A stretch of 64,000 bases of DNA from Caldilineales bacterium (lineage in GTDB: Bacteria; Chloroflexota; Anaerolineae; J102). Below the pieces are notes generated by a model. The model was not told where the DNA came from and ran no database searches. It was given only the letters and a program-made list of their open reading frames with translations. Every line of letters starts with the position of its first letter. The stretch's first letter is position 1. The stretch spans positions 36,538 through 100,537 of the forward strand of contig JBBINH010000005.1 in assembly GCA_037443945.1 (NCBI GenBank). The letters are read 5' to 3'. Position numbers and translations under genes: made by a program. Of the stretch, positions 23,318 to 35,540 are shown in pieces.

Positions 23318-24034
23318 TTAGATCGGCGGCCAGGGGTGGTTGCGACGCCGGGGATCGGGATGGGGAAAGTGACCGGCCGCGATCAGGGCATCCAGGCGTT
23401 GGTGGAAGGCGCGGATTTCGGCCGGGCTGAGGAGCGCAACCAGCCGAGCCTGGAGTTCGGTATCGTGACACAGGCGGACCGCCAGCTTCTGCAGATCGGC
23501 CAGCAAAGGGGCCGGGATCGGTTCACCGGCAAAATCCCAGATGACCGTGCGCAGCTTGGGCTCCACATGAAAACACAGGCCGTGATCGATAGACCACATC
23601 CGTCCCTGGGCATCGAGCAGGCAGTGGCCGGCTTTGCGGTCGGCGTTGTTGGTGATGACATCGAACAAAGCGATCCGGCGGAAGTCGTCGGCATGGCGGG
23701 GGAAGATGTTGAAGTAGTGCTGTTCGGGATCGCTTTCGATGTAGACCTGAACCGTCCCCGGTCCATAGGCTCCCTCGCGCAGGACCGTCGGTGGGATGAG
23801 CTCCCAGCCCAGGGCTTCGGCGACGAGATAGGCGGCGTACTCGCGCAGATAGAGGGTGCCGTTGGGAAAATCCCACAGCGGCCGTTCCCCGCGCCGGGGT
23901 TTGTACACGGCCGGCAGTTCCCGTCCCTCATAACAGGCGCGCACAAGCAGGGCGTAGTTTGAACTCCAGGGGATAACTCCCAACGGTTCCAGCTCGCCCT
24001 GGCCGAGGATTCGCAAAGCTGTGGCCGTATCCAT
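23318..24034 (-). CDS. SCO1664 family protein (PI3/PI4-kinase-like atypical kinase fold)
   Basis: Family-like sequence with catalytic-loop-like NADRKAGHCLL and IDHGLCF (DFG-like). It is encoded next to a DUF3090 gene, as is typical for this family. Confidence 0.75.
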   Translation of the reverse strand: MDTATALRILGQGELEPLGVIPWSSNYALLVRACYEGRELPAVYKPRRGERPLWDFPNGTLYLREYAAYLVAEALGWELIPPTVLREGAYGPGTVQVYIESDPEQHYFNIFPRHADDFRRIALFDVITNNADRKAGHCLLDAQGRMWSIDHGLCFHVEPKLRTVIWDFAGEPIPAPLLADLQKLAVRLCHDTELQARLVALLSPAEIRAFHQRLDALIAAGHFPHPDPRRRNHPWPPI

Positions 24035-24067
24035 AGAGCCGTACCCTCTCGTTATCGGTGATCCGAC

Positions 24068-24592
24068 TCATTGGACGTAGAGCTTGCCGTGTCCGTTCGA
24101 GGGGGGACAGAAGTGCCCGCCGGGGTCCAGGGGCTGTCCACAAAGGGGGCAGCTCGGCCGACCGGCGGCCACCACTTGCAGGACATGATGCGCCAAGGCG
24201 CGAGCATGTTCCCGGGTGATGATGAATCGAGCCAATTCCGGTTGTTCCCCACGCTCGACCAATTCCTGAACGACGATGACGATGACATCCTCGTCTTCAT
24301 CATAGCCGACGCCCAGTTGGGCAACCCGCCAGGCCGGGACAATGGGATGGATCAGGTCAAAATCCACCGGTTCATCGGGATCCGCCGTGGGGCGTTGGAA
24401 GACCTCGGCGATCTGATCGAGCAGCGAGAGCAAGCCCTCGCCCAGCGCGCGCATCTGCTCTTTCTCGCAGATCATGGTCACGAGTTCCAGGCCGCGACCG
24501 GCCTGGAGGAAAAAGGTCCGGCGACCCGGTTCACCGATGGTACCCACCGTGAGATGGTCGGCGGGGTTGAAGTCGAACGCAAAATCAGGCAT
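24068..24592 (-). CDS. DUF3090 family protein
   Basis: The N-terminus MPDFAFDFNPADHLTVGTIGEPGRRTFFLQAG and the C-terminal Cys motif CPLCGQPLDPGGHFCPPSNGH match DUF3090. The real start is at 24592 with the RBS region GGAGG upstream. Confidence 0.75.
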   Translation of the reverse strand: MPDFAFDFNPADHLTVGTIGEPGRRTFFLQAGRGLELVTMICEKEQMRALGEGLLSLLDQIAEVFQRPTADPDEPVDFDLIHPIVPAWRVAQLGVGYDEDEDVIVIVVQELVERGEQPELARFIITREHARALAHHVLQVVAAGRPSCPLCGQPLDPGGHFCPPSNGHGKLYVQ

Positions 24593-25241
24593 GCGGATCG
24601 GGAGGGGCAGAGGGTTCGGAAGGCGGTTCGGACGGTGGTTCCAGCCGGCCGGTATCGTTGATGCAGAGGACACGCGGGCCCCAGGGACCAAAGCGGACCA
24701 TGCTGACCGAGCCCGGCGCAATGTGCAGGCGTTGGAACAGGTCGAGGGGAGCACCCAGGAAACAGCTCAGGGCTGCCCGAATCGGGTCGGCATGGCTACA
24801 GACCACGACCGGCTGCCGGGGATGGGCAGCCGCGATCTCGTGCAGGGCTTCCACGGCCCGCTGCTGCATGGCGCGTAAGCTCTCACCGCCGGGAAAGCGG
24901 ACAAAGCTGGGGGTGATTTGAACCAGCTTCCACAGCTCGGTTTGGGTCAGCTCGTCGATGGCCTGACCCTGCCATTCGCCGTAGTCGCTTTCGAGCAGAC
25001 CGTCATGGGTGCGGACGGGCAGGCCATGGGGCGTGGCGATGATCGCGGCCGTTTCGTAGCATCGTTCGAGGGGCGAGCTGTAGACGGCGGCAAGGGGCCA
25101 TGAAGCCAGACGGAGGGCCAGACGGCGGGCCTGCTCGCGGCCGACTTCGTTGAGATGAATGCCCGGCAGACGACCGGCCAGGCGGCGGGCCTTGATGAGG
25201 TCGTTTTCGCCGTGGCGAACGAGGAGCAGCGTGGCCGACAC
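24585..25241 (-). CDS. histidine phosphatase family protein (PGAM-like; MSMEG_4193-type)
   Basis: LLLVRHGE is the RHG catalytic motif of the histidine phosphatase superfamily. The gene overlaps the DUF3090 start by 8 nt and the upstream aminotransferase stop. Confidence 0.8.
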   Translation of the reverse strand: MSATLLLVRHGENDLIKARRLAGRLPGIHLNEVGREQARRLALRLASWPLAAVYSSPLERCYETAAIIATPHGLPVRTHDGLLESDYGEWQGQAIDELTQTELWKLVQITPSFVRFPGGESLRAMQQRAVEALHEIAAAHPRQPVVVCSHADPIRAALSCFLGAPLDLFQRLHIAPGSVSMVRFGPWGPRVLCINDTGRLEPPSEPPSEPSAPPDPHA

Positions 25242-26517: not shown

Positions 26518-27828
26518 CTAAGGACACGGGCCGGGATCGCGGCAGGTTTCGGCCAGGGCTTTCTGCAACATGCCGGCATCGCGGTTGCGGACAAACTCGG
26601 CCACGGCGGTCGTCAGGGCCGCCCGCCAGAGCGAATCCGCCGTGACACCGTGGGTCAGGCTGCCTACAAGGGTGTGCGTTTGCCAATCGCGCAGGGCCGC
26701 ACGGCTATAGGCATCGTACGGCGTGGGGTCGGCATCTCGTCGCGGCGAAAGCGAGTGACGTCGTGGGTTCAAGGCATCCTGTCCGGCCTGCGAGCCCACC
26801 GTCGTCAACCAGGCGATGGCCTCACGGCGATGGGGACCCACACTCGCCAGGACAAATCCTTCCACCGCAAACAAAAAGACCCCCTCGGTGCCCGGCATCG
26901 GCATCCAGCCGATGGGACCGTGCGGTTGCAGGCTTGATTCCGCCAGGGCACTCCGCACCTCGTCGCCGGCGACCAGAAAGGCGGTCTGGCCTGCCAGGAG
27001 CGAGGCGGCCGTTTCCGACCAGGAGCGTTCGGCGATATCGGCGTAGTTCAGCAACTGGTTGAAGCGATCGATGGCGGCGCCGACGCCGGGATCGGCCCAA
27101 TCGCCCCGGCCCGTTACCAGGTTGCGATACCCCTCAGGACCGATTTGGGCCAACAAGAGGGTCTCCAACAGGTGCAGGGCCGTTTCGGGAGCGCCCAGGG
27201 CCAGGGGCTTGTCCAGCCCGGCGGCCTTGAGGGCTTCGAGATCGGCAAGCCAGGTGTCGAAGTCGGTGGGTACGACGCCGCTCACCGTAGCCAGCAGGTC
27301 GGCGCGATACCACAGCAGGTTAAGACGCCGGACGGCTACCGGTACGACATACAGGTTCTCGTCCACACCGAGGTAGGTCAGCAGATCCGCCGGCAGAGCC
27401 TGGGTCCATCCCTGGCGGACGAAAAGGAAATTGAGCGGTTCGATGAGACCGGCTTCGGCATAGCCGGCGATCAGGTCACGGCTACTGGGACCCTGCCAGC
27501 TATCCGGACTATCGCCGGCCTGGAGGCGGAAGCGCACGGCGGCCGCCACCTCTTCGGCACTGCTGCCGGGTCGGGACGAATGGATGAAGGTGATATCGGG
27601 GTGCATGGCGCTAAAAACCGCCACCAGCGCGGCAAGCGCTTCGGCATCGGCCCCACTCGTCCAGGTCGTAAACACATCGACCTGAGAGGGACCGGCAGGG
27701 GTCGGGGTCGGGGAGGGCGGTGAGGGGGTGGGTTCCAGGACGAAACCGGTACAAGCGCTCAGCCCGATGGCGAAGACGGCCCCTATTCGCACGATGCGCA
27801 CCGATAACGACCGCAACAAGCCTGGCAT
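26518..27828 (-). CDS. ABC transporter substrate-binding lipoprotein (family 1 solute-binding, sugar-type), orphan
   Basis: The protein has a signal peptide with lipobox LSAC and a Pro/Ser linker, and is SBP-like overall. No permease or ATPase genes are adjacent. Confidence 0.7.
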   Translation of the reverse strand: MPGLLRSLSVRIVRIGAVFAIGLSACTGFVLEPTPSPPSPTPTPAGPSQVDVFTTWTSGADAEALAALVAVFSAMHPDITFIHSSRPGSSAEEVAAAVRFRLQAGDSPDSWQGPSSRDLIAGYAEAGLIEPLNFLFVRQGWTQALPADLLTYLGVDENLYVVPVAVRRLNLLWYRADLLATVSGVVPTDFDTWLADLEALKAAGLDKPLALGAPETALHLLETLLLAQIGPEGYRNLVTGRGDWADPGVGAAIDRFNQLLNYADIAERSWSETAASLLAGQTAFLVAGDEVRSALAESSLQPHGPIGWMPMPGTEGVFLFAVEGFVLASVGPHRREAIAWLTTVGSQAGQDALNPRRHSLSPRRDADPTPYDAYSRAALRDWQTHTLVGSLTHGVTADSLWRAALTTAVAEFVRNRDAGMLQKALAETCRDPGPCP

Positions 27829-28072: not shown

Positions 28073-30934
28073 ATGGTCCGTCTGTGCGCCTATTTCGGTT
28101 ATGGCCTCCTCGCCCTCCTCGTGCTCGCCGGCCTCGGCGGCTGCACCCTACCCCCACCGCCTGTAGCGCCTGTCGCAACCCCCGCCCTCGGCCTGGACAT
28201 GGCATTGCGGCAGACGCTCGCCCAGGCCGACATCGGACCGTTAGACTCCGGTCCGGTACCCGATCCGGCGCAAGTTGAGCTGGGCCGGATGCTGTTCTTC
28301 GACAAAGAACTCAGCGGCAACCGAGATATCGCCTGCGCCACTTGTCATCATCCCACTTTGGCCACCGGTGACGGTCTGTCCCTCTCCATCGGCACGGGGG
28401 GCTTCGGTCTGGGGCCGCAGCGACGGCGAGGCGCCATGCGCATGCTCATCCCTCGCAACGCGCCCGACCTGTTCAATCGGGGTTCACCGGAATGGCACAC
28501 CTTGTTTTGGGATGGCCGCGTGATGGGCACACCCCACGAGGGCTTTACCCATCCCATCGAGTTTACCCAAACCCTCCCCGGCGGTCTTGAGCATCTTCTG
28601 GCGGCTCAGGCCATGTTTCCGGTAACCTCGCGGGCCGAGATGCGCGGGGAACCTCGCGATCTCGATGTCTACGGGCAGGAAAACGAAGTGGCGGCTACCG
28701 GCGAGAAGGACCTTCAAAGCGTCTGGCAGGCGCTGATGAAGCGACTGCTGGCCATCCCCGCATACCGTCGGCTCTTCGCCACGGCCTATCCCGATGTGCC
28801 GATGGAGGCCCTGGGCTTCCAACACGCCGCCAATGCTCTGGCCGCCTTTCAGATTGCCGCCTTTACCCTGCTCAATAGCCCCTGGGACCGCTACTTGGCC
28901 GGCGATGACGAGGCCCTGGCGCCGGCGGCCAAGCGGGGCGCGTTGTTGTTCTACGGCAAGGCCCGCTGTAGCCTTTGCCACAGCGGCAATCTGTTGACCG
29001 ATCAGCGGTTCCACAACATCGGCGTACCCCAATTCGGACCGGGCAAAGGTCGCCAAAACGCCTTTGTTGACTACGGCCGTGCCCGCGAGACGGGAAAACC
29101 CGAAGATCGCTTCGCTTTTCGCACGCCGCCCCTGCGCAACGTCGCCCTGACCGGCCCCTGGATGCACAACGGCGCCTATTTCACCCTGGAAGCTGCCGTG
29201 CGCCATCATCTCGACCCGCGACGCGCCCTGGCCGAATACGACTATTCGCAACTGGCTCCCGAAATCCGCAGCGAACTCCATCTGCGTCCGCGCAGGCTGA
29301 TGGACGAGGTGGCCGCCGGGATCGATCCCCTCTTGGCCGAACCTATCGAGCTCGACGAGGCCGAACTGGCCGACCTGCTGGCCTTTTTGGAGGCCCTCAC
29401 CGACCCGGCGGCCACCCAACTTGAGCACCTGATCCCGGAAGCCGTACCCAGTGGCCTTCCCGTGCACGACGGCCCCGACGGTCCTACCCTTTTCCGCGAT
29501 GTGAGTCAGGCCGCCGGCATAACGGCCAAGCACACCCAAAACTTCCAGATGACCGGTCAGGCCTGGGGCGATTACGACAACGACGGGTGGCTTGACCTGT
29601 ATGTCACCGACAACGTCGGCCCCAACACCCTCTATCACAACGAGGGCGATGGCACGTTCAGCGTGGCGCCTATCAGCGCCCAGGTCGCCCTGCCCGAGCA
29701 TAAAAGCGGTGGCGCCACCTTTGCCGATTACGACAACGACGGCTGGCCCGATCTGCTGGTCCTCGGCCGCGAGGAGGACGTGCTCTTCCGCAATGACCGG
29801 GGTCGCGGGTTTGTGGATGTGACGGCTCAGGCCGGCATCAGCGACCCCTACCACAGCAAGAGCGCTTCCTGGGCCGATTACGATGGGGACGGCTGGTTGG
29901 ACCTTTACGTGGCCAACTGGTCGTGTCTGCCTCGTTGCGCCCGTTCCTCCGGCTTCACCGGCGATCCCGACCGGCTGTATCACAACAACGGCGACGGCAC
30001 CTTCAGCGATGTCAGCCATCTCCTCGGCTCCCACACCTACGGTGGCGGCTTTATTGCCCGCTGGCTGGATTACGACAACGACGGCGATCAGGACATCTAC
30101 CTGGTCAACGATGAATTCATCCAACCGGCCGGCAACAAGCTCTTCCGCAACGACGGGCCCGGCTGCGGCGGGTGGTGTTTCACCGAGATCGCGGCGGCGG
30201 TCGGGGCCGATACCAGCGTGATGGGTATGGGCGTGGCCGCCGACGACTGGGATGGCGACGGCGATTTCGATCTGTACTTCACGAATGCCGGCAAGATGGT
30301 GCTGTTGGAGAATCGGGATGGCCGTTTTGGCGATGTGGCCGAGGCTGCCGGCGTGGCCCTTTCCGACCGTGCCGTGGGCTGGGGTGTGGTTAGTTTCGAT
30401 TACGATAACGACGGCGATCGCGACCTCTACGTGGCCCTGATGAAAGGGACCGGCATCAGCGCCTTCAACCCGCTGTTCCGCAACGACGGTCGCGGTCGCT
30501 TTAGCGATGTCGGCCACCGTAGCGGCGCCGACGACCCCGGTGCCGGCATGGGCGTCGCTGCCGCCGATTACGATGCCGATGGCCGGGTGGATCTGGTCCT
30601 GGGCAACTACAATCAGGACTACCGCCTGCTCCGCAACGAGACCCCGATACCGGAGGGCTTTCATTGGCTGGGCCTCAAGCTGATCGGCGGGGGTCCGGTC
30701 AATCGCGATGCCGTGGGCACGCGCGTCGTGGTGACGACCGACGATGGCCGCCGCCAGGTCCAGGAGGTTCACAACGGCACCGGCCTGGGCGGCGGCGATA
30801 TGTTGACCCTGCACTTCGGACTGGGCCGAGCCGTGGTGCGCCGCCTCGACATCCGTTGGCCCAACGGGGTCACTCAGGTCCTCACCGCGGCACCGGTGGA
30901 TCGGTATCTGACCCTCGTGTACGAACATCCGTAG
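28073..30934 (+). CDS. secreted lipoprotein: di-heme cytochrome c peroxidase (CCP/MauG family) fused to FG-GAP/VCBS repeats and UnbV/ASPIC domain
   Basis: The N-terminus has lipobox LAGLGGC and two heme motifs, CATCHH and CSLCHS, in a CCP-like context. At least seven DYDNDGWxDLYV-type FG-GAP repeats follow. The C-terminal block is ASPIC-like (HWLGLKLIGGG...GTRVVVTTDDG...GLGGGDMLTLHFGLG). Confidence 0.8.
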   Translation: MVRLCAYFGYGLLALLVLAGLGGCTLPPPPVAPVATPALGLDMALRQTLAQADIGPLDSGPVPDPAQVELGRMLFFDKELSGNRDIACATCHHPTLATGDGLSLSIGTGGFGLGPQRRRGAMRMLIPRNAPDLFNRGSPEWHTLFWDGRVMGTPHEGFTHPIEFTQTLPGGLEHLLAAQAMFPVTSRAEMRGEPRDLDVYGQENEVAATGEKDLQSVWQALMKRLLAIPAYRRLFATAYPDVPMEALGFQHAANALAAFQIAAFTLLNSPWDRYLAGDDEALAPAAKRGALLFYGKARCSLCHSGNLLTDQRFHNIGVPQFGPGKGRQNAFVDYGRARETGKPEDRFAFRTPPLRNVALTGPWMHNGAYFTLEAAVRHHLDPRRALAEYDYSQLAPEIRSELHLRPRRLMDEVAAGIDPLLAEPIELDEAELADLLAFLEALTDPAATQLEHLIPEAVPSGLPVHDGPDGPTLFRDVSQAAGITAKHTQNFQMTGQAWGDYDNDGWLDLYVTDNVGPNTLYHNEGDGTFSVAPISAQVALPEHKSGGATFADYDNDGWPDLLVLGREEDVLFRNDRGRGFVDVTAQAGISDPYHSKSASWADYDGDGWLDLYVANWSCLPRCARSSGFTGDPDRLYHNNGDGTFSDVSHLLGSHTYGGGFIARWLDYDNDGDQDIYLVNDEFIQPAGNKLFRNDGPGCGGWCFTEIAAAVGADTSVMGMGVAADDWDGDGDFDLYFTNAGKMVLLENRDGRFGDVAEAAGVALSDRAVGWGVVSFDYDNDGDRDLYVALMKGTGISAFNPLFRNDGRGRFSDVGHRSGADDPGAGMGVAAADYDADGRVDLVLGNYNQDYRLLRNETPIPEGFHWLGLKLIGGGPVNRDAVGTRVVVTTDDGRRQVQEVHNGTGLGGGDMLTLHFGLGRAVVRRLDIRWPNGVTQVLTAAPVDRYLTLVYEHP

Positions 30935-30991: not shown

Positions 30992-32383
30992 TCAAGTTCC
31001 AAGACGACGCCAACGGGCGGGCAGATGGTTTTTGACCACGCCCTGCACCCGTTTTCCCCAACCCAGGCCGAAGCCATCGCCGCAGACGAGCACCCAACCG
31101 TCAGGGCCGGGAGCGGGAAACGCTTCCCCGCGCCGAAACGCCCGCAGTTCCGGCGAATCTAAAGGCAGATCCAGACGACCTGCGTTGCGTGGGGGCAAGG
31201 CTGCCAAGGCCAGGGCATGATCGGGGACGAAGGAATCCCGGTGCTGGCGTCCGGCCCGCAGTCCGATCCGTCGGGGCTGTAGGGGCCGCCAGAACTCCGG
31301 CGCCACGGGCGCCAGATGCCAGGTGTCCTCCTCGCGCAGCCAGCCTGCGGTCGGGAAGGGAACGGCGAAATTCGCCTCCCACAAGGAGCGCAGCAACGGT
31401 GGTAGCCCCCGTGACATCGGTACAGGCCGTAAGGAGCGGTTGGGCGCCGAGGGGCCTTCCCGTTGCAACAGGGCAAAGCAATGCCCTTCGCCCACCGTAC
31501 GATGCGGCCAGATCCGCACGCAGCGTTCCAGGGGCAGACCGGCGGCCAGTTCCGGCTCGATCCAATCGGGCCGGCCGGGATCGAAACCGGGCAACGCCGG
31601 CGGCGCCACGAGGATGAACTCGCGATGGTCGCGCAGAAAGTGGGCGATGACGGCCTCGTTTTCCTCCGGGGCAAAGGTGCAGGTGGCATAAAGCAGCCGA
31701 CCGCCGGGGCGGACAAGGGCTGCGGCATCGGCGAGAAGGCGGCGCTGGCGCCGGGCACAGCCGGCTACCGTCGCCGGACTCCATTCCCGCCGGGCCGCCG
31801 GTGTTTTGCGGAACATGCCCTCGCCCGAACAAGGCGCATCCACAAGCACCCGGTCGAACAGGCCCGGCCAACGTGCGGCTAGATCGGCCGCTGTGGCGGT
31901 GGTGACCAGAAAACGGGTGATGCCGGCGCGTTCCAGGTTGTCAACCAGGGCTGCCGCACGGCCCGGCACCGCCTCATTGGCCACGAGCAGGCCCTGATCG
32001 GCCATGCGGGCGGCCAAATGAGTGGTCTTACCGCCCGGAGCGGCGCACAAATCGAGGACCAGCTCACCGGGTTGCGGGTCCAGCAGGATGGCGGCGGCCA
32101 TGGCGCTGGGATCCTGAAGATAGTACAGACCGGCGGCATGATAGGGGTGATGGCCCGGCAGTGGTTCGGCAGCGGCCACGACGATAAAGCCCTCGTCACA
32201 CCAAGGGACCGGCTGCAGAAGCCAGGGCACGCGGCTGCATAGCGCTTCCGGCGTTATCTTCAGCCTGTTGACGCGCAGGCCCAGACGCGGAGGTTCCTCC
32301 AGGCTGGCCCGAAAGGCAGGCGCTTCCGGGCCCAGCCAGGCTTCCATCCGGGCCAGGAAGCGCGTCGGTAAGGGGACGGTCAT
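30992..32383 (-). CDS. 16S rRNA m5C methyltransferase, RsmB/RsmF (NOL1/NOP2/Sun) family
   Basis: LDLCAAPGGKTTHLA is the SAM motif. DAPCSGEGMFRK and YATCT are the catalytic Cys motifs. Confidence 0.8.
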   Translation of the reverse strand: MTVPLPTRFLARMEAWLGPEAPAFRASLEEPPRLGLRVNRLKITPEALCSRVPWLLQPVPWCDEGFIVVAAAEPLPGHHPYHAAGLYYLQDPSAMAAAILLDPQPGELVLDLCAAPGGKTTHLAARMADQGLLVANEAVPGRAAALVDNLERAGITRFLVTTATAADLAARWPGLFDRVLVDAPCSGEGMFRKTPAARREWSPATVAGCARRQRRLLADAAALVRPGGRLLYATCTFAPEENEAVIAHFLRDHREFILVAPPALPGFDPGRPDWIEPELAAGLPLERCVRIWPHRTVGEGHCFALLQREGPSAPNRSLRPVPMSRGLPPLLRSLWEANFAVPFPTAGWLREEDTWHLAPVAPEFWRPLQPRRIGLRAGRQHRDSFVPDHALALAALPPRNAGRLDLPLDSPELRAFRRGEAFPAPGPDGWVLVCGDGFGLGWGKRVQGVVKNHLPARWRRLGT

Positions 32384-34406: not shown

Positions 34407-35540
34407 GTGTTTAGGATTATGATGAACGGCGTGGCCATCCTGCAACTCATCGTCGGTCTGATCCTGCTCATCCTCGGTGCGGAGCTGTTGGTGCGCGGGG
34501 CTTCACGGTTGGCCGCGGCCATCGGCATCTCACCGCTTGTCATCGGTCTGACCGTGGTCGCCTTCGGCACGAGTTCCCCGGAGCTGGCCGTCAGCCTGGT
34601 TTCGGCCTGGACCGGTCAGGCGGATATCGCCGTCGGCAATGTCGTCGGCAGCAATATCTTCAACATCCTGGTCATCATCGGTCTTTCGGCCCTTATCGTG
34701 CCGCTGACCGTGGCGCAGCAGTTGGTCCGGCTGGATGTCCCGCTCCTGATCGGGGTTTCTCTGCTGACCTTTCTGCTCAGTCGCGATGGCCTTATCGGCC
34801 GCGGAGAGGGGCTTATCCTGTTCGGTCTTTTGATCGCCTACCTGGTGTTTTTGGCCCGCTTCAGCCCGCGCGAATCGGTCGAGGTCCAGGCCGAATATGC
34901 TCAGGAGTTCGGCGATAGTCGTTTCAAGGGGCCCCTGCAATACGTCTCCTACTTTGTCCTGGTCGGGCTCGGTCTGATCCTGCTCGTGGTTGGCTCACGC
35001 TGGCTGGTGGCCGGTGCGGTTGCCGTGGCGCGTCTTTTGGGCGTGAGTGAGCTGGTTATCGGCCTCACCATCATTGCCGGCGGCACATCGTTGCCCGAAG
35101 TCGCCACCTCGGTGGTGGCGGCTCTGCGCAAGGAGCGGGATATCGCCGTGGGGAATGCGGTGGGGAGCAATCTGTTCAACCTGCTGGCCGTCCTCGGCCT
35201 TGCGGCCCTGGTGGCGCCGCGGGGTGTTGCCGTTGCGCAGGCGGCTCTTGTTTTCGATCTGCCGGTGATGATCGCCGTCGCCGTGGCGACCTTACCCGTT
35301 TTCTTTACGGGCTATCGCATTGCCCGTTGGGAAGGGGCTTTGTTCCTGGCCTATTATGCGGCGTATCTGCTCTACATAGGACTTGACGCTCTCCAGCACG
35401 AGACGTTGGGTCCCTATCGTGCGGTTATGCTGGGGTTTGTGCTGCCGTTGACGGCCATCACGCTGGGGATCTTGGTCCTCCGCGAATGGCAGATGATACG
35501 GCGCCGTGTCCTGCCGGGCGCTACCGAGACCCCTGACTGA
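34407..35540 (+). CDS. Ca2+/Na+ antiporter (CaCA family, YrbG-like)
   Basis: The protein has two alpha-repeat motifs, GTSSPELAVS and GTSLPEVATS. Confidence 0.85.
   Translation: MFRIMMNGVAILQLIVGLILLILGAELLVRGASRLAAAIGISPLVIGLTVVAFGTSSPELAVSLVSAWTGQADIAVGNVVGSNIFNILVIIGLSALIVPLTVAQQLVRLDVPLLIGVSLLTFLLSRDGLIGRGEGLILFGLLIAYLVFLARFSPRESVEVQAEYAQEFGDSRFKGPLQYVSYFVLVGLGLILLVVGSRWLVAGAVAVARLLGVSELVIGLTIIAGGTSLPEVATSVVAALRKERDIAVGNAVGSNLFNLLAVLGLAALVAPRGVAVAQAALVFDLPVMIAVAVATLPVFFTGYRIARWEGALFLAYYAAYLLYIGLDALQHETLGPYRAVMLGFVLPLTAITLGILVLREWQMIRRRVLPGATETPD

Follow-up and report, generated by a model that had tools for sequence, protein, structure and literature searches.

A di-haem peroxidase-like module fused to a CRTAC1-type propeller in Chloroflexota, and its association with alpha-glucan operons

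To our knowledge, bacterial di-haem peroxidases are either periplasmic peroxide scavengers or MauG-type protein maturases, and we know of no function for the bacterial CRTAC1-like propellers, which are very common. A 953-amino-acid protein encoded by a Caldilineales bacterium of the Chloroflexota contains both, a di-haem module followed by an FG-GAP propeller with a terminal ASPIC domain, and raises the question of what task would hold such an enzyme and such a propeller together in one chain. The gene lies at positions 28,073 to 30,934 of a 64,000-nucleotide stretch of contig JBBINH010000005.1 (assembly GCA_037443945.1), referred to here as the window. It belongs to a fused family that comes in two domain orders and is found specifically within Anaerolineae operons for starch/maltodextrin, which suggests that the di-haem scaffold has a third use, at the cell surface; the family also provides a first testable functional handle on the bacterial CRTAC1-like proteins.

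A full-length search with the window protein retrieved 885 proteins with E <= 1e-10 among 8000 candidates scored, and the best 120, taken as 90%-identity clusters, were examined. All of these 120 carry PF03150, PF13517 and PF07593 together, at bit scores running from 1944 down to 1044, and every named protein among them comes from Chloroflexota (Caldilineales, Caldilineae, Anaerolineae, Promineifilaceae, Leptofilum and unclassified members). Across Chloroflexota, hundreds of proteins conserve the module pair, which occurs in two domain orders. The original prediction, made from the DNA sequence, had called the fusion unusual; with the three-domain combination shared by the best 120 of 885 relatives, the architecture is common and that description has to be given up. 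Its companion statement, that the two modules usually occur as separate proteins, held: among the best 150 relatives at the 50% identity level, about 100 are propeller-only and about 40 di-haem-only, and the fused family amounts to about a dozen representatives. The sequences are already public under generic names ("FG-GAP-like repeat-containing protein", "VCBS repeat-containing protein", "cytochrome c peroxidase") and are uncharacterised, with their permuted architecture and genomic context unreported; full-text searches of the literature found no paper on the fusion, its clade, its starch association or a peroxidase in Anaerolineae starch operons.

In class A, which includes the window gene and 30 of the 120 proteins examined, a chain of about 950 amino acids runs from the signal through the di-haem module to the propeller/ASPIC unit. 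Class B, with the remaining 90 (about 1030-1050 amino acids), has a signal or anchor, the propeller/ASPIC unit, usually two hydrophobic segments and then the di-haem module; if the two predicted helices form a membrane hairpin, both modules would lie outside the cell. Pure clades of class A and of class B appeared in a neighbour-joining tree built from the di-haem module, with internal branches too short to order A and B against the stand-alone and otherwise fused relatives. One protein, P0158, has the class A order yet nests in the class B clade of this tree, indicating that the domain order changed more than once. A 1607-amino-acid protein, P0211, combines the di-haem module with two propeller/ASPIC units.

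The genomic context of the fused genes was compared with that of the separate modules. Genes for glycoside hydrolase family 13 (GH13) enzymes or MalF were found in or beside 10 of 16 distinct fused loci and at 0 of 156 control loci, the latter comprising 65 stand-alone di-haem genes, 5 di-haem genes with a distant adjacent propeller and 86 propeller-only genes (Fisher p = 1.7e-12), indicating that the starch association belongs to the fusion and not to either module alone. Such a link is unexpected for a di-haem peroxidase. A mal/GH13 cluster was present at seven of the eight distinct class B loci (L003, L083, L084, L088, which equals L004, L171, L172 and L173), where the genes follow one another on one strand in the order MalE-like binding protein with a pullulanase-type X25 domain, MalF-like permease, MalG-like permease, fusion, and one to three GH13 alpha-amylases. 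ROK or MalK genes often lie upstream, a GH31 gene and a pullulanase gene were each seen once, and in L088, L171 and L172 the fusion starts only 1-3 nt after the permease stop. The GH13 enzyme adjoining the fusion carries a lipoprotein signal in five loci, which argues that it is extracellular; the other GH13 enzymes of these operons have no signals.

Three of the eight distinct class A loci (L081, L085 and L169) are convergent with a minus-strand operon encoding a solute-binding protein, MalF, MalG, in some cases an esterase, and GH13. These three loci also share a conserved divergent upstream block (L081:2382-5803, L085:3051-6584 and L169:3273-6677) that consists of a gene for a 124-138-amino-acid predicted membrane protein with no Pfam family, followed by genes for dihydrodipicolinate synthase (DHDPS), a phosphoribosyltransferase, a PfkB kinase and a nitroreductase.

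Pfam assigned CCP_MauG (PF03150) to amino acids 66-279 of the window protein (E 1.3e-36; 126.9 bits against a cut-off of 25.6), FG-GAP_3 (PF13517) to six stretches (E 5e-45), FG-GAP (PF01839; E 4e-10) and UnbV_ASPIC (PF07593) to amino acids 880-947 (E 2.9e-16), all far above the gathering cut-offs. The protein contains exactly two CxxCH motifs (C88ATCH92 and C299SLCH303) and the motif D-x-[DN]-x-[DN]-G-x-x-[DE] occurs in it exactly seven times, at amino acids 500, 552, 602, 666, 725, 776 and 832. Its N-terminus, MVRLCAYFGYGLLALLVLAGLGGC, has a lipobox-like LGGC at Cys24, the end (LAGLGG-C24) of a Sec-type signal, MVRLCAYFGYGLLALLVLAGLGG-C24; a lipobox Cys stands at the equivalent place in 18 of 30 class A homologues, the rest being N-terminally truncated or equipped with a signal anchor. 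The product is thus a predicted bacterial lipoprotein, extracytoplasmic and tethered to the membrane. The features to which the following paragraphs refer are listed below in window coordinates.

28073..30934, forward strand: complete open reading frame of 953 amino acids plus stop, ATG start, no internal stop, class A domain order
28073..28144, forward strand: predicted Sec-type signal peptide, amino acids 1-23, with lipobox-like L21-G22-G23-C24
28184..29470, forward strand: di-haem module of the bacterial cytochrome c peroxidase (bCCP)/MauG superfamily, amino acids ~38-466 (PF03150, TIGR03981, PDB matches, Foldseek)
28334..28348, forward strand: haem motif 1, C88-A-T-C-H92, of the predicted peroxidatic haem, proximal His92
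28394..28396, forward strand: Thr108, at the distal His position of canonical bCCPs (His93 of MacA)
28508..28510, forward strand: Trp146 of the FWDGR motif, counterpart of the inter-haem Trp in bCCP and MauG
28607..28639, forward strand: distal-pocket triad Gln179/Pro183/Glu189 (AQAMFPVTSRAEM)
28967..28981, forward strand: haem motif 2, C299-S-L-C-H303, invariant
29204..29209, forward strand: His378-His379, His379 being the predicted sixth ligand of the second haem (alignment)
29432..29470, forward strand: conserved tail IPEAVPSGLPVHD, C-terminal signature of the di-haem clade and here the inter-module linker
29492..30652, forward strand: seven-bladed FG-GAP/integrin-type beta-propeller, amino acids 474-860 (Pfam, DSSP, Foldseek)
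29570..29596, forward strand: calcium-loop motif 1, amino acids 500-508 (motif search, as for motifs 2 to 7)
29726..29752, forward strand: calcium-loop motif 2, amino acids 552-560
29876..29902, forward strand: calcium-loop motif 3, amino acids 602-610
29924..29938, forward strand: invariant Cys618-x3-Cys622 (NWSCxPxC) in the propeller (alignment)
30068..30094, forward strand: calcium-loop motif 4, amino acids 666-674
30164..30178, forward strand: invariant Cys698-x3-Cys702 (GPGCxGWC) in the propeller (alignment)
30245..30271, forward strand: calcium-loop motif 5, amino acids 725-733
30398..30424, forward strand: calcium-loop motif 6, amino acids 776-784
30566..30592, forward strand: calcium-loop motif 7, amino acids 832-840
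30662..30919, forward strand: ASPIC/UnbV beta-sandwich, amino acids 864-949 (Pfam 880-947)

An AlphaFold2 model built from the 120-homologue alignment (pLDDT 80.8, pTM 0.79) showed, by DSSP, seven four-stranded blades in a ring closed by strand 474-476, followed by a seven-stranded C-terminal sandwich. The pTM of 0.79 over the full length suggests that the modules adopt a defined mutual arrangement in the prediction; the model contains no haem and is poor for amino acids 84-152 of the haem module. Foldseek gave murine CRTAC1 (9etn) as the best PDB match to the predicted model (E 6.6e-30, target-normalised TM 0.74, 529 columns) and matched the N-terminal half to bCCP, MauG and MbnH structures. 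PDB sequence searches likewise placed the N-terminal half with MacA (4aal/4aao; E ~1e-31), CcpA, MbnH (6e1c), MauG (3l4m) and BthA, and returned CRTAC1 as the sole match of the C-terminal half (E 7e-22). In both CRTAC1 and the window protein an FG-GAP calcium propeller precedes an ASPIC sandwich, and the window protein has the defining features of that family; it differs in being 22% identical, in the absence of the EGF-like tail, in its covalent joining to a haem enzyme and in two extra CxxxC pairs, which are common to its Chloroflexia paralogues. With a CCP/MauG-like N-terminal region carrying two CxxCH, seven calcium-type FG-GAP repeats, an ASPIC block and a predicted lipoprotein signal, the outline drawn in the original prediction was recovered, in part by the Pfam and AlphaFold checks that it had proposed. 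The two CxxxC pairs probably form structural loop disulfides. A haem-linked metal or redox site built from the four propeller cysteines was considered and found unsupported; the same pairs occur in the propeller-only Chloroflexia genes L010 and L023 and are not specific to the fusion.

The residues of the haem module were surveyed in 232 members of the di-haem clade, 122 of them fused proteins. Throughout the clade the two CxxCH motifs hardly vary, a few gapped or truncated sequences excepted, and neither does the Gln/Pro/Glu triad; Gln179, Pro183 and Glu189 are invariant in all fused proteins. The spacing of this triad (Gln, Pro four residues on, Glu ten residues on) corresponds to what we take to be Gln103/Pro107/Glu113 of MauG, a numbering drawn from general knowledge and from the titles of mutant entries in the PDB. 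Position 108, which aligns with the distal His93 of MacA (4aal, and also the H93G mutant 4aao), is occupied by Thr in 120 and position 146 by Trp in 121 of the 122 fused proteins, and the calcium-site residues Asn129, Thr360 and Pro362 are conserved. At position 379, 116 of the 122 have His, 5 have Met, 1 has Gln and none has Tyr, and the preceding His378 is invariant; Tyr at position 379 was found only in some stand-alone relatives. In alignments with 3o5c, 6e1c and 3orv (MauG Y294H), His379 lies 14 residues after His365 of the PWMHNG motif, the spacing seen for the Met ligand of Shewanella CcpA and for the Tyr ligands of MbnH and MauG (residue 294).

With Thr in place of the distal His, and with the Gln/Pro/Glu pocket, the inter-haem Trp and the calcium-site residues all retained, the first haem is predicted to be permanently five-coordinate and reactive towards peroxide. 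The second haem would be His/His-ligated, or His/Met-ligated in a few members, which would make it an electron-relay haem and not the Tyr-ligated, bis-Fe(IV)-stabilising haem of MauG. Canonical bCCPs (Geobacter MacA 4aal, Shewanella CcpA 3o5c, Pseudomonas CCP 1eb7 and Paracoccus 2c1u) have the same fold and Pfam family as the window module and share with it the two CxxCH, the Trp of FWDGR, the Gln/Glu pocket, the calcium-site Asn and Thr-x-Pro, and PxxHxG. They differ in the distal His that ligates their resting peroxidatic haem, replaced here by Thr108, and in the Met ligand of their electron-transfer haem, replaced by His379 (Met in 5 of 122 fused proteins). The window protein also has several insertions relative to the bCCPs and a C-terminal extension of about 90 amino acids ending in VPSGLPVxD, and is fused to a propeller/ASPIC unit of 480 amino acids and lipid-anchored by prediction.

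The partner-protein oxidisers MauG, MbnH (6e1c) and BthA (6nx0) likewise have no distal His, their homology to the window module extends through the C-terminal helices, and some stand-alone relatives of the module have, as they do, a conserved adjacent partner gene. Their His/Tyr ligation is absent from all fused members. The best NCBIfam match of the module, TIGR03981 (MauG-like, His-Xaa-Ser systems), reached 302 bits over model positions 15-411 of 411, below its cut-off of 340, and TIGR03791 (MauG) and TIGR04039 (MbnH) scored 137 and 141 bits against cut-offs of 444 and 363. No substrate gene of the MauG or MbnH kind (preMADH, MbnP) stands beside the window gene, whose neighbours encode a solute-binding protein and RsmF, and no mau, mbn or Hxs genes lie nearby. 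A defence link through TIGR03981 and the His-Xaa-Ser system was also considered and rejected, with 0 PADLOC matches and no Hxs or radical-SAM genes beside the window gene. The module belongs to a distinct clade of the superfamily and, by these sequence criteria, appears to be neither a bCCP of the canonical kind nor a bis-Fe(IV) enzyme like MauG. The label "CCP/MauG-like" therefore stands at superfamily level and needs refining below it, there being no distal His, no usual Met ligand and no MauG Tyr ligand.

Outside the fusion, the di-haem module occurs as stand-alone proteins of about 430-460 amino acids, 44-59% identical and spread over many phyla, including Binatia, Gemmatimonadota, Deinococcota, Planctomycetota, Verrucomicrobiota and Alpha- and Gammaproteobacteria; most of their loci have no propeller gene within 8 kb, and no close fusion was found outside Chloroflexota. 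Modules 50-60% identical to that of the window are also joined to other partners, namely PA14 with the carbohydrate-binding module (CBM) CBM4_9 (P0225, P0221), beta-helix/NosD (P0175), SdrD_B/Cna_B (P0194) and Amidase_2 with cohesin and dockerin (P0154), a pattern in which one catalytic module is paired with exchangeable modules for binding surfaces or carbohydrates. The original prediction had envisaged a redox enzyme tethered to a propeller of adhesive or carbohydrate-binding type; the results are compatible with this, and the alpha-glucan operons together with the sister proteins bearing CBM4_9, PA14, beta-helix and SdrD domains make it more specific. VPSGLPVxD ends the stand-alone and class B proteins and forms the linker in class A, and a role of the IPxxVPSGLPV tail as a fusion-specific docking element was ruled out, since this tail marks the C-terminus throughout the di-haem clade, also in its stand-alone members.

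At three loci a di-haem relative (43-54% identical) and distant FG-GAP/ASPIC genes are adjacent on the same strand. In the Verrucomicrobiota loci L027:5895-11276 and L032:5604-11001 a double FG-GAP/ASPIC propeller of about 1270 amino acids is followed 18-82 bp downstream by the di-haem gene, and in a Phycisphaeraceae metagenome-assembled genome (MAG; L022:7932-11427) the di-haem gene comes first. Their propellers are only 26-30% identical to that of the window, so the association looks independent.

A conserved secreted protein of about 240 amino acids directly adjoins stand-alone di-haem relatives at 14 loci (L007, L035, L037, L040, L041, L042, L045, L048, L054, L058, L065, L069, L076 and L078; for example L042:7158-7940 and L037:9422-10159, both forward strand) in Proteobacteria, Acidobacteriota, Saprospiraceae and other hosts. 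It matched no Pfam or NCBIfam family. His replaces the inter-haem Trp in 13 of the 14 associated di-haem proteins, as reported for hydrazine synthase gamma, and the two genes may encode an undescribed MauG-type pair of enzyme and partner.

Propeller-only CRTAC1-like genes also occur in tandem, in a Candidatus Kuenenia MAG (L079:8001-11783), a Gaiellales genome (L066:8262-11683) and a Chloroflexia genome (L010:8001-11285). A metagenome scan with the 120-sequence alignment (L089-L168) found such genes, 31-44% identical, to be very common in JGI contigs; there were no fused loci among the matches listed, and GH13 or MalF lay near 0 of the 80 loci sampled, which were among the controls of the context comparison above.

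Given the residues kept in the haem module and the operons in which fused genes lie, we give an even chance to the overall picture of a surface enzyme that uses H2O2, is positioned by a ligand-binding propeller and is tied to alpha-glucan processing. A lipid in class A, and helices in class B, would fix the protein to the external side of the cytoplasmic membrane. The CRTAC1-type propeller and ASPIC domain would act as a calcium-stabilised platform for binding and positioning a ligand, most likely a glycan or the cell surface; the Foldseek matches include glycan-binding propellers of FG-GAP type, namely fungal N-acetylglucosamine lectins (4tqm, 5mb4, 2bwm) and the heparin sensor BT4663 (4a2m). 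The open first haem would react with H2O2 and exchange electrons through Trp146 and the His/His haem, and in most of the family the peroxide would be consumed beside the machinery for capture, hydrolysis and import of alpha-glucan (lipoprotein GH13, MalE-X25 and MalFG). The electrons could come either from a respiratory donor, giving local removal of peroxide, or from the bound substrate, giving oxidative attack. The window copy is itself a stand-alone class A gene with no starch genes, and its part in alpha-glucan processing would follow from orthology.

Several observations weigh against this picture. No glycan-binding residues were identified, no gene for an electron donor is encoded nearby, and no experimental study of any family member was found in the literature. 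GH13 and MalFG are missing near the window gene, near four further class A genes (its 89% identical relative L001, and L002, L086 and L170) and near L087, and the possibility that the window's solute-binding protein is a remnant of a mal transporter was ruled out by its identity of 22-24% to mal binding proteins (E 0.04-0.8). The operon association could in part be synteny inherited within Anaerolineae and not a sign of function. Finally, the assignment of the sixth ligand to His379 has the alignment as its sole basis, and it is His378 that is invariant while His379 varies.

Other explanations of the fusion were weighed against the same evidence. That an assembly or annotation error joined two genes has nothing in its favour beyond the general possibility. 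The uninterrupted architecture recurs in 30 class A proteins from independent assemblies (NCBI, ENA, JGI and Logan), and P0001, from another Caldilineales MAG, is 86-89% identical to the window protein over an alignment of the whole length, which gives no indication of a frameshift; its locus has the same order of aminotransferase, binding protein, fusion and RsmF. The single intact reading frame thus shows no sign of the splitting frameshift or stop named with the original prediction, and the artefact is effectively refuted. An ordinary detoxifying CCP would reduce H2O2 to water with electrons from general c-type cytochromes or cupredoxins and keep the propeller as a rigid, inert spacer or anchor, making up for the periplasmic confinement that Chloroflexota lack. 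The conserved peroxidatic, inter-haem Trp and calcium-site residues are all expected of it, His/His or His/Met ligation suits a relay haem, anchoring by lipobox or transmembrane hairpin is present, and the layout in the window, a monocistronic gene that has no donor gene close by, is the usual one for bCCPs. It leaves unexplained why only the fused form, and not the 65 stand-alone relatives, sits in starch operons directly behind malG, why sister proteins carry carbohydrate-binding modules, and why the modules were joined in two orders and stand as neighbour genes in other phyla; we therefore consider it unlikely.

A maturase of the MauG/MbnH type, in which H2O2-activated long-range oxidation of residues of the fused propeller would yield a protein-derived cofactor or cross-link, would explain through the fusion of enzyme and substrate why the pair is conserved in both orders. 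TIGR03981 as the best NCBIfam match, the alignment with MauG and MbnH (and not with the bCCPs) through the C-terminal helices to about amino acid 446, the lack of a distal His ligand, and the 14 stand-alone relatives beside a secreted protein, a layout typical of the MauG, MbnH and BthA systems, all point the same way. The Tyr axial ligand that defines the chemistry of these enzymes is nevertheless present in 0 of 122 fused proteins, and the Y294H variant of MauG is inactive in cofactor synthesis according to a reference cited in PMC6405878. Scores for TIGR03791 and TIGR04039 fall far short of their cut-offs, members of this di-haem clade often stand alone and otherwise have many unrelated modules as fusion partners, and the fusion offers no specific conserved Trp, Tyr or Cys as a candidate, the Cys pairs being present in propeller-only genes as well. 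A maturase is accordingly quite improbable. We regard as very improbable indeed a quinohaemoprotein-like dehydrogenase, with a catalytic propeller (a sugar dehydrogenase or lyase, for example) and the di-haem module as built-in electron acceptor. Fusions of propeller and cytochrome are a recurrent design of redox enzymes, the arrangement would parallel alcohol and pyranose dehydrogenases that combine pyrroloquinoline quinone (PQQ) with cytochrome domains, or cytochrome cd1, and the starch operons would suit sugar oxidation. Pfam, however, returned FG-GAP and ASPIC only and no signature of PQQ or GSDH; the seven calcium loops belong to the structural integrin type, CRTAC1 as the nearest structure has no known cofactor, and the complete peroxidatic pocket would be needless for a mere relay.

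A comparable combination is known from hydrazine synthase, where the partner of beta-propeller subunits is a di-haem subunit of CCP/MauG-like type, which in Scalindua is fused to one of them; the one paper found that is close in theme reports CRTAC1-family FG-GAP genes inside hydrazine synthase-like clusters of other bacteria together with CCP-like subunits (PMC12758564). The Kuenenia tandem pair described above may relate to these CRTAC1-family genes near hydrazine synthase-like clusters (PMC12758564). The propellers of hydrazine synthase itself differ from those of the fused family in not being of the FG-GAP/ASPIC type, its gamma subunit has His for the inter-haem Trp that the fused family keeps, and no counterpart of its alpha subunit or multihaem partners accompanies the fused genes. 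A likeness of design, with no relationship of sequence or fold, may be seen to the redox auxiliaries of polysaccharide breakdown (H2O2-using lytic polysaccharide monooxygenases (LPMOs), cytochrome proteins with a CBM, and PQQ pyranose dehydrogenase with a cytochrome), which likewise pair a secreted redox module with a binding module and are encoded together with glycoside hydrolases and sugar importers.

This likeness leads to a more specific version of the surface-enzyme picture, in which the fused family would be a haem-based, H2O2-driven auxiliary enzyme of alpha-glucan breakdown, a proposal that we consider speculative and rather improbable. Chains of starch or glycogen would be held at the cell surface by the propeller/ASPIC unit, and the constitutively open, peroxide-activated di-haem centre would attack either the polysaccharide or a bound intermediate by oxidation and so make it looser for the neighbouring lipoprotein amylase. 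The specific, recurrent placement between malG and a secreted GH13, the CBM and PA14 sister proteins and the lack of a donor gene are compatible with it, and none of them demonstrates it. We know of no precedent for c-type di-haem chemistry on a polysaccharide; if the oxidative proposal were true, the family would represent a new enzyme class in polysaccharide degradation and a bacterial c-type-haem counterpart of the starch-active LPMOs that use peroxide. Wastewater sludge, sediments and soils contain Anaerolineae and Caldilineae in abundance, so an extra component of alpha-glucan uptake in these organisms would bear on carbon turnover there.

In the window, the fusion gene is flanked by unrelated housekeeping genes.

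26518-27828, reverse strand: solute-binding protein gene, upstream and divergent, 244-bp gap
30992-32383, reverse strand: RsmF gene, downstream and convergent, 57-bp gap

With a divergent neighbour upstream and a convergent one downstream, the gene is monocistronic by orientation, as had been predicted. A sigma-70 promoter scan returned 0 sites and is uninformative for Chloroflexota. An antisense open reading frame of 814 amino acids (28484..30928, reverse strand) spans almost the whole fusion gene and is a shadow frame typical of high-GC DNA; similar ones oppose homologous genes elsewhere. Upstream of the aminotransferase gene, a compact cluster at 23318-25241 (reverse strand) encodes PI3/PI4-kinase-like, DUF3090 and histidine-phosphatase-family proteins. 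A gene of the Na+/Ca2+ exchanger family (PF01699, two repeats) lies at 34407-35540 on the forward strand, 3.5 kb downstream of the gene that encodes the protein with seven calcium loops, a proximity that is probably a coincidence.

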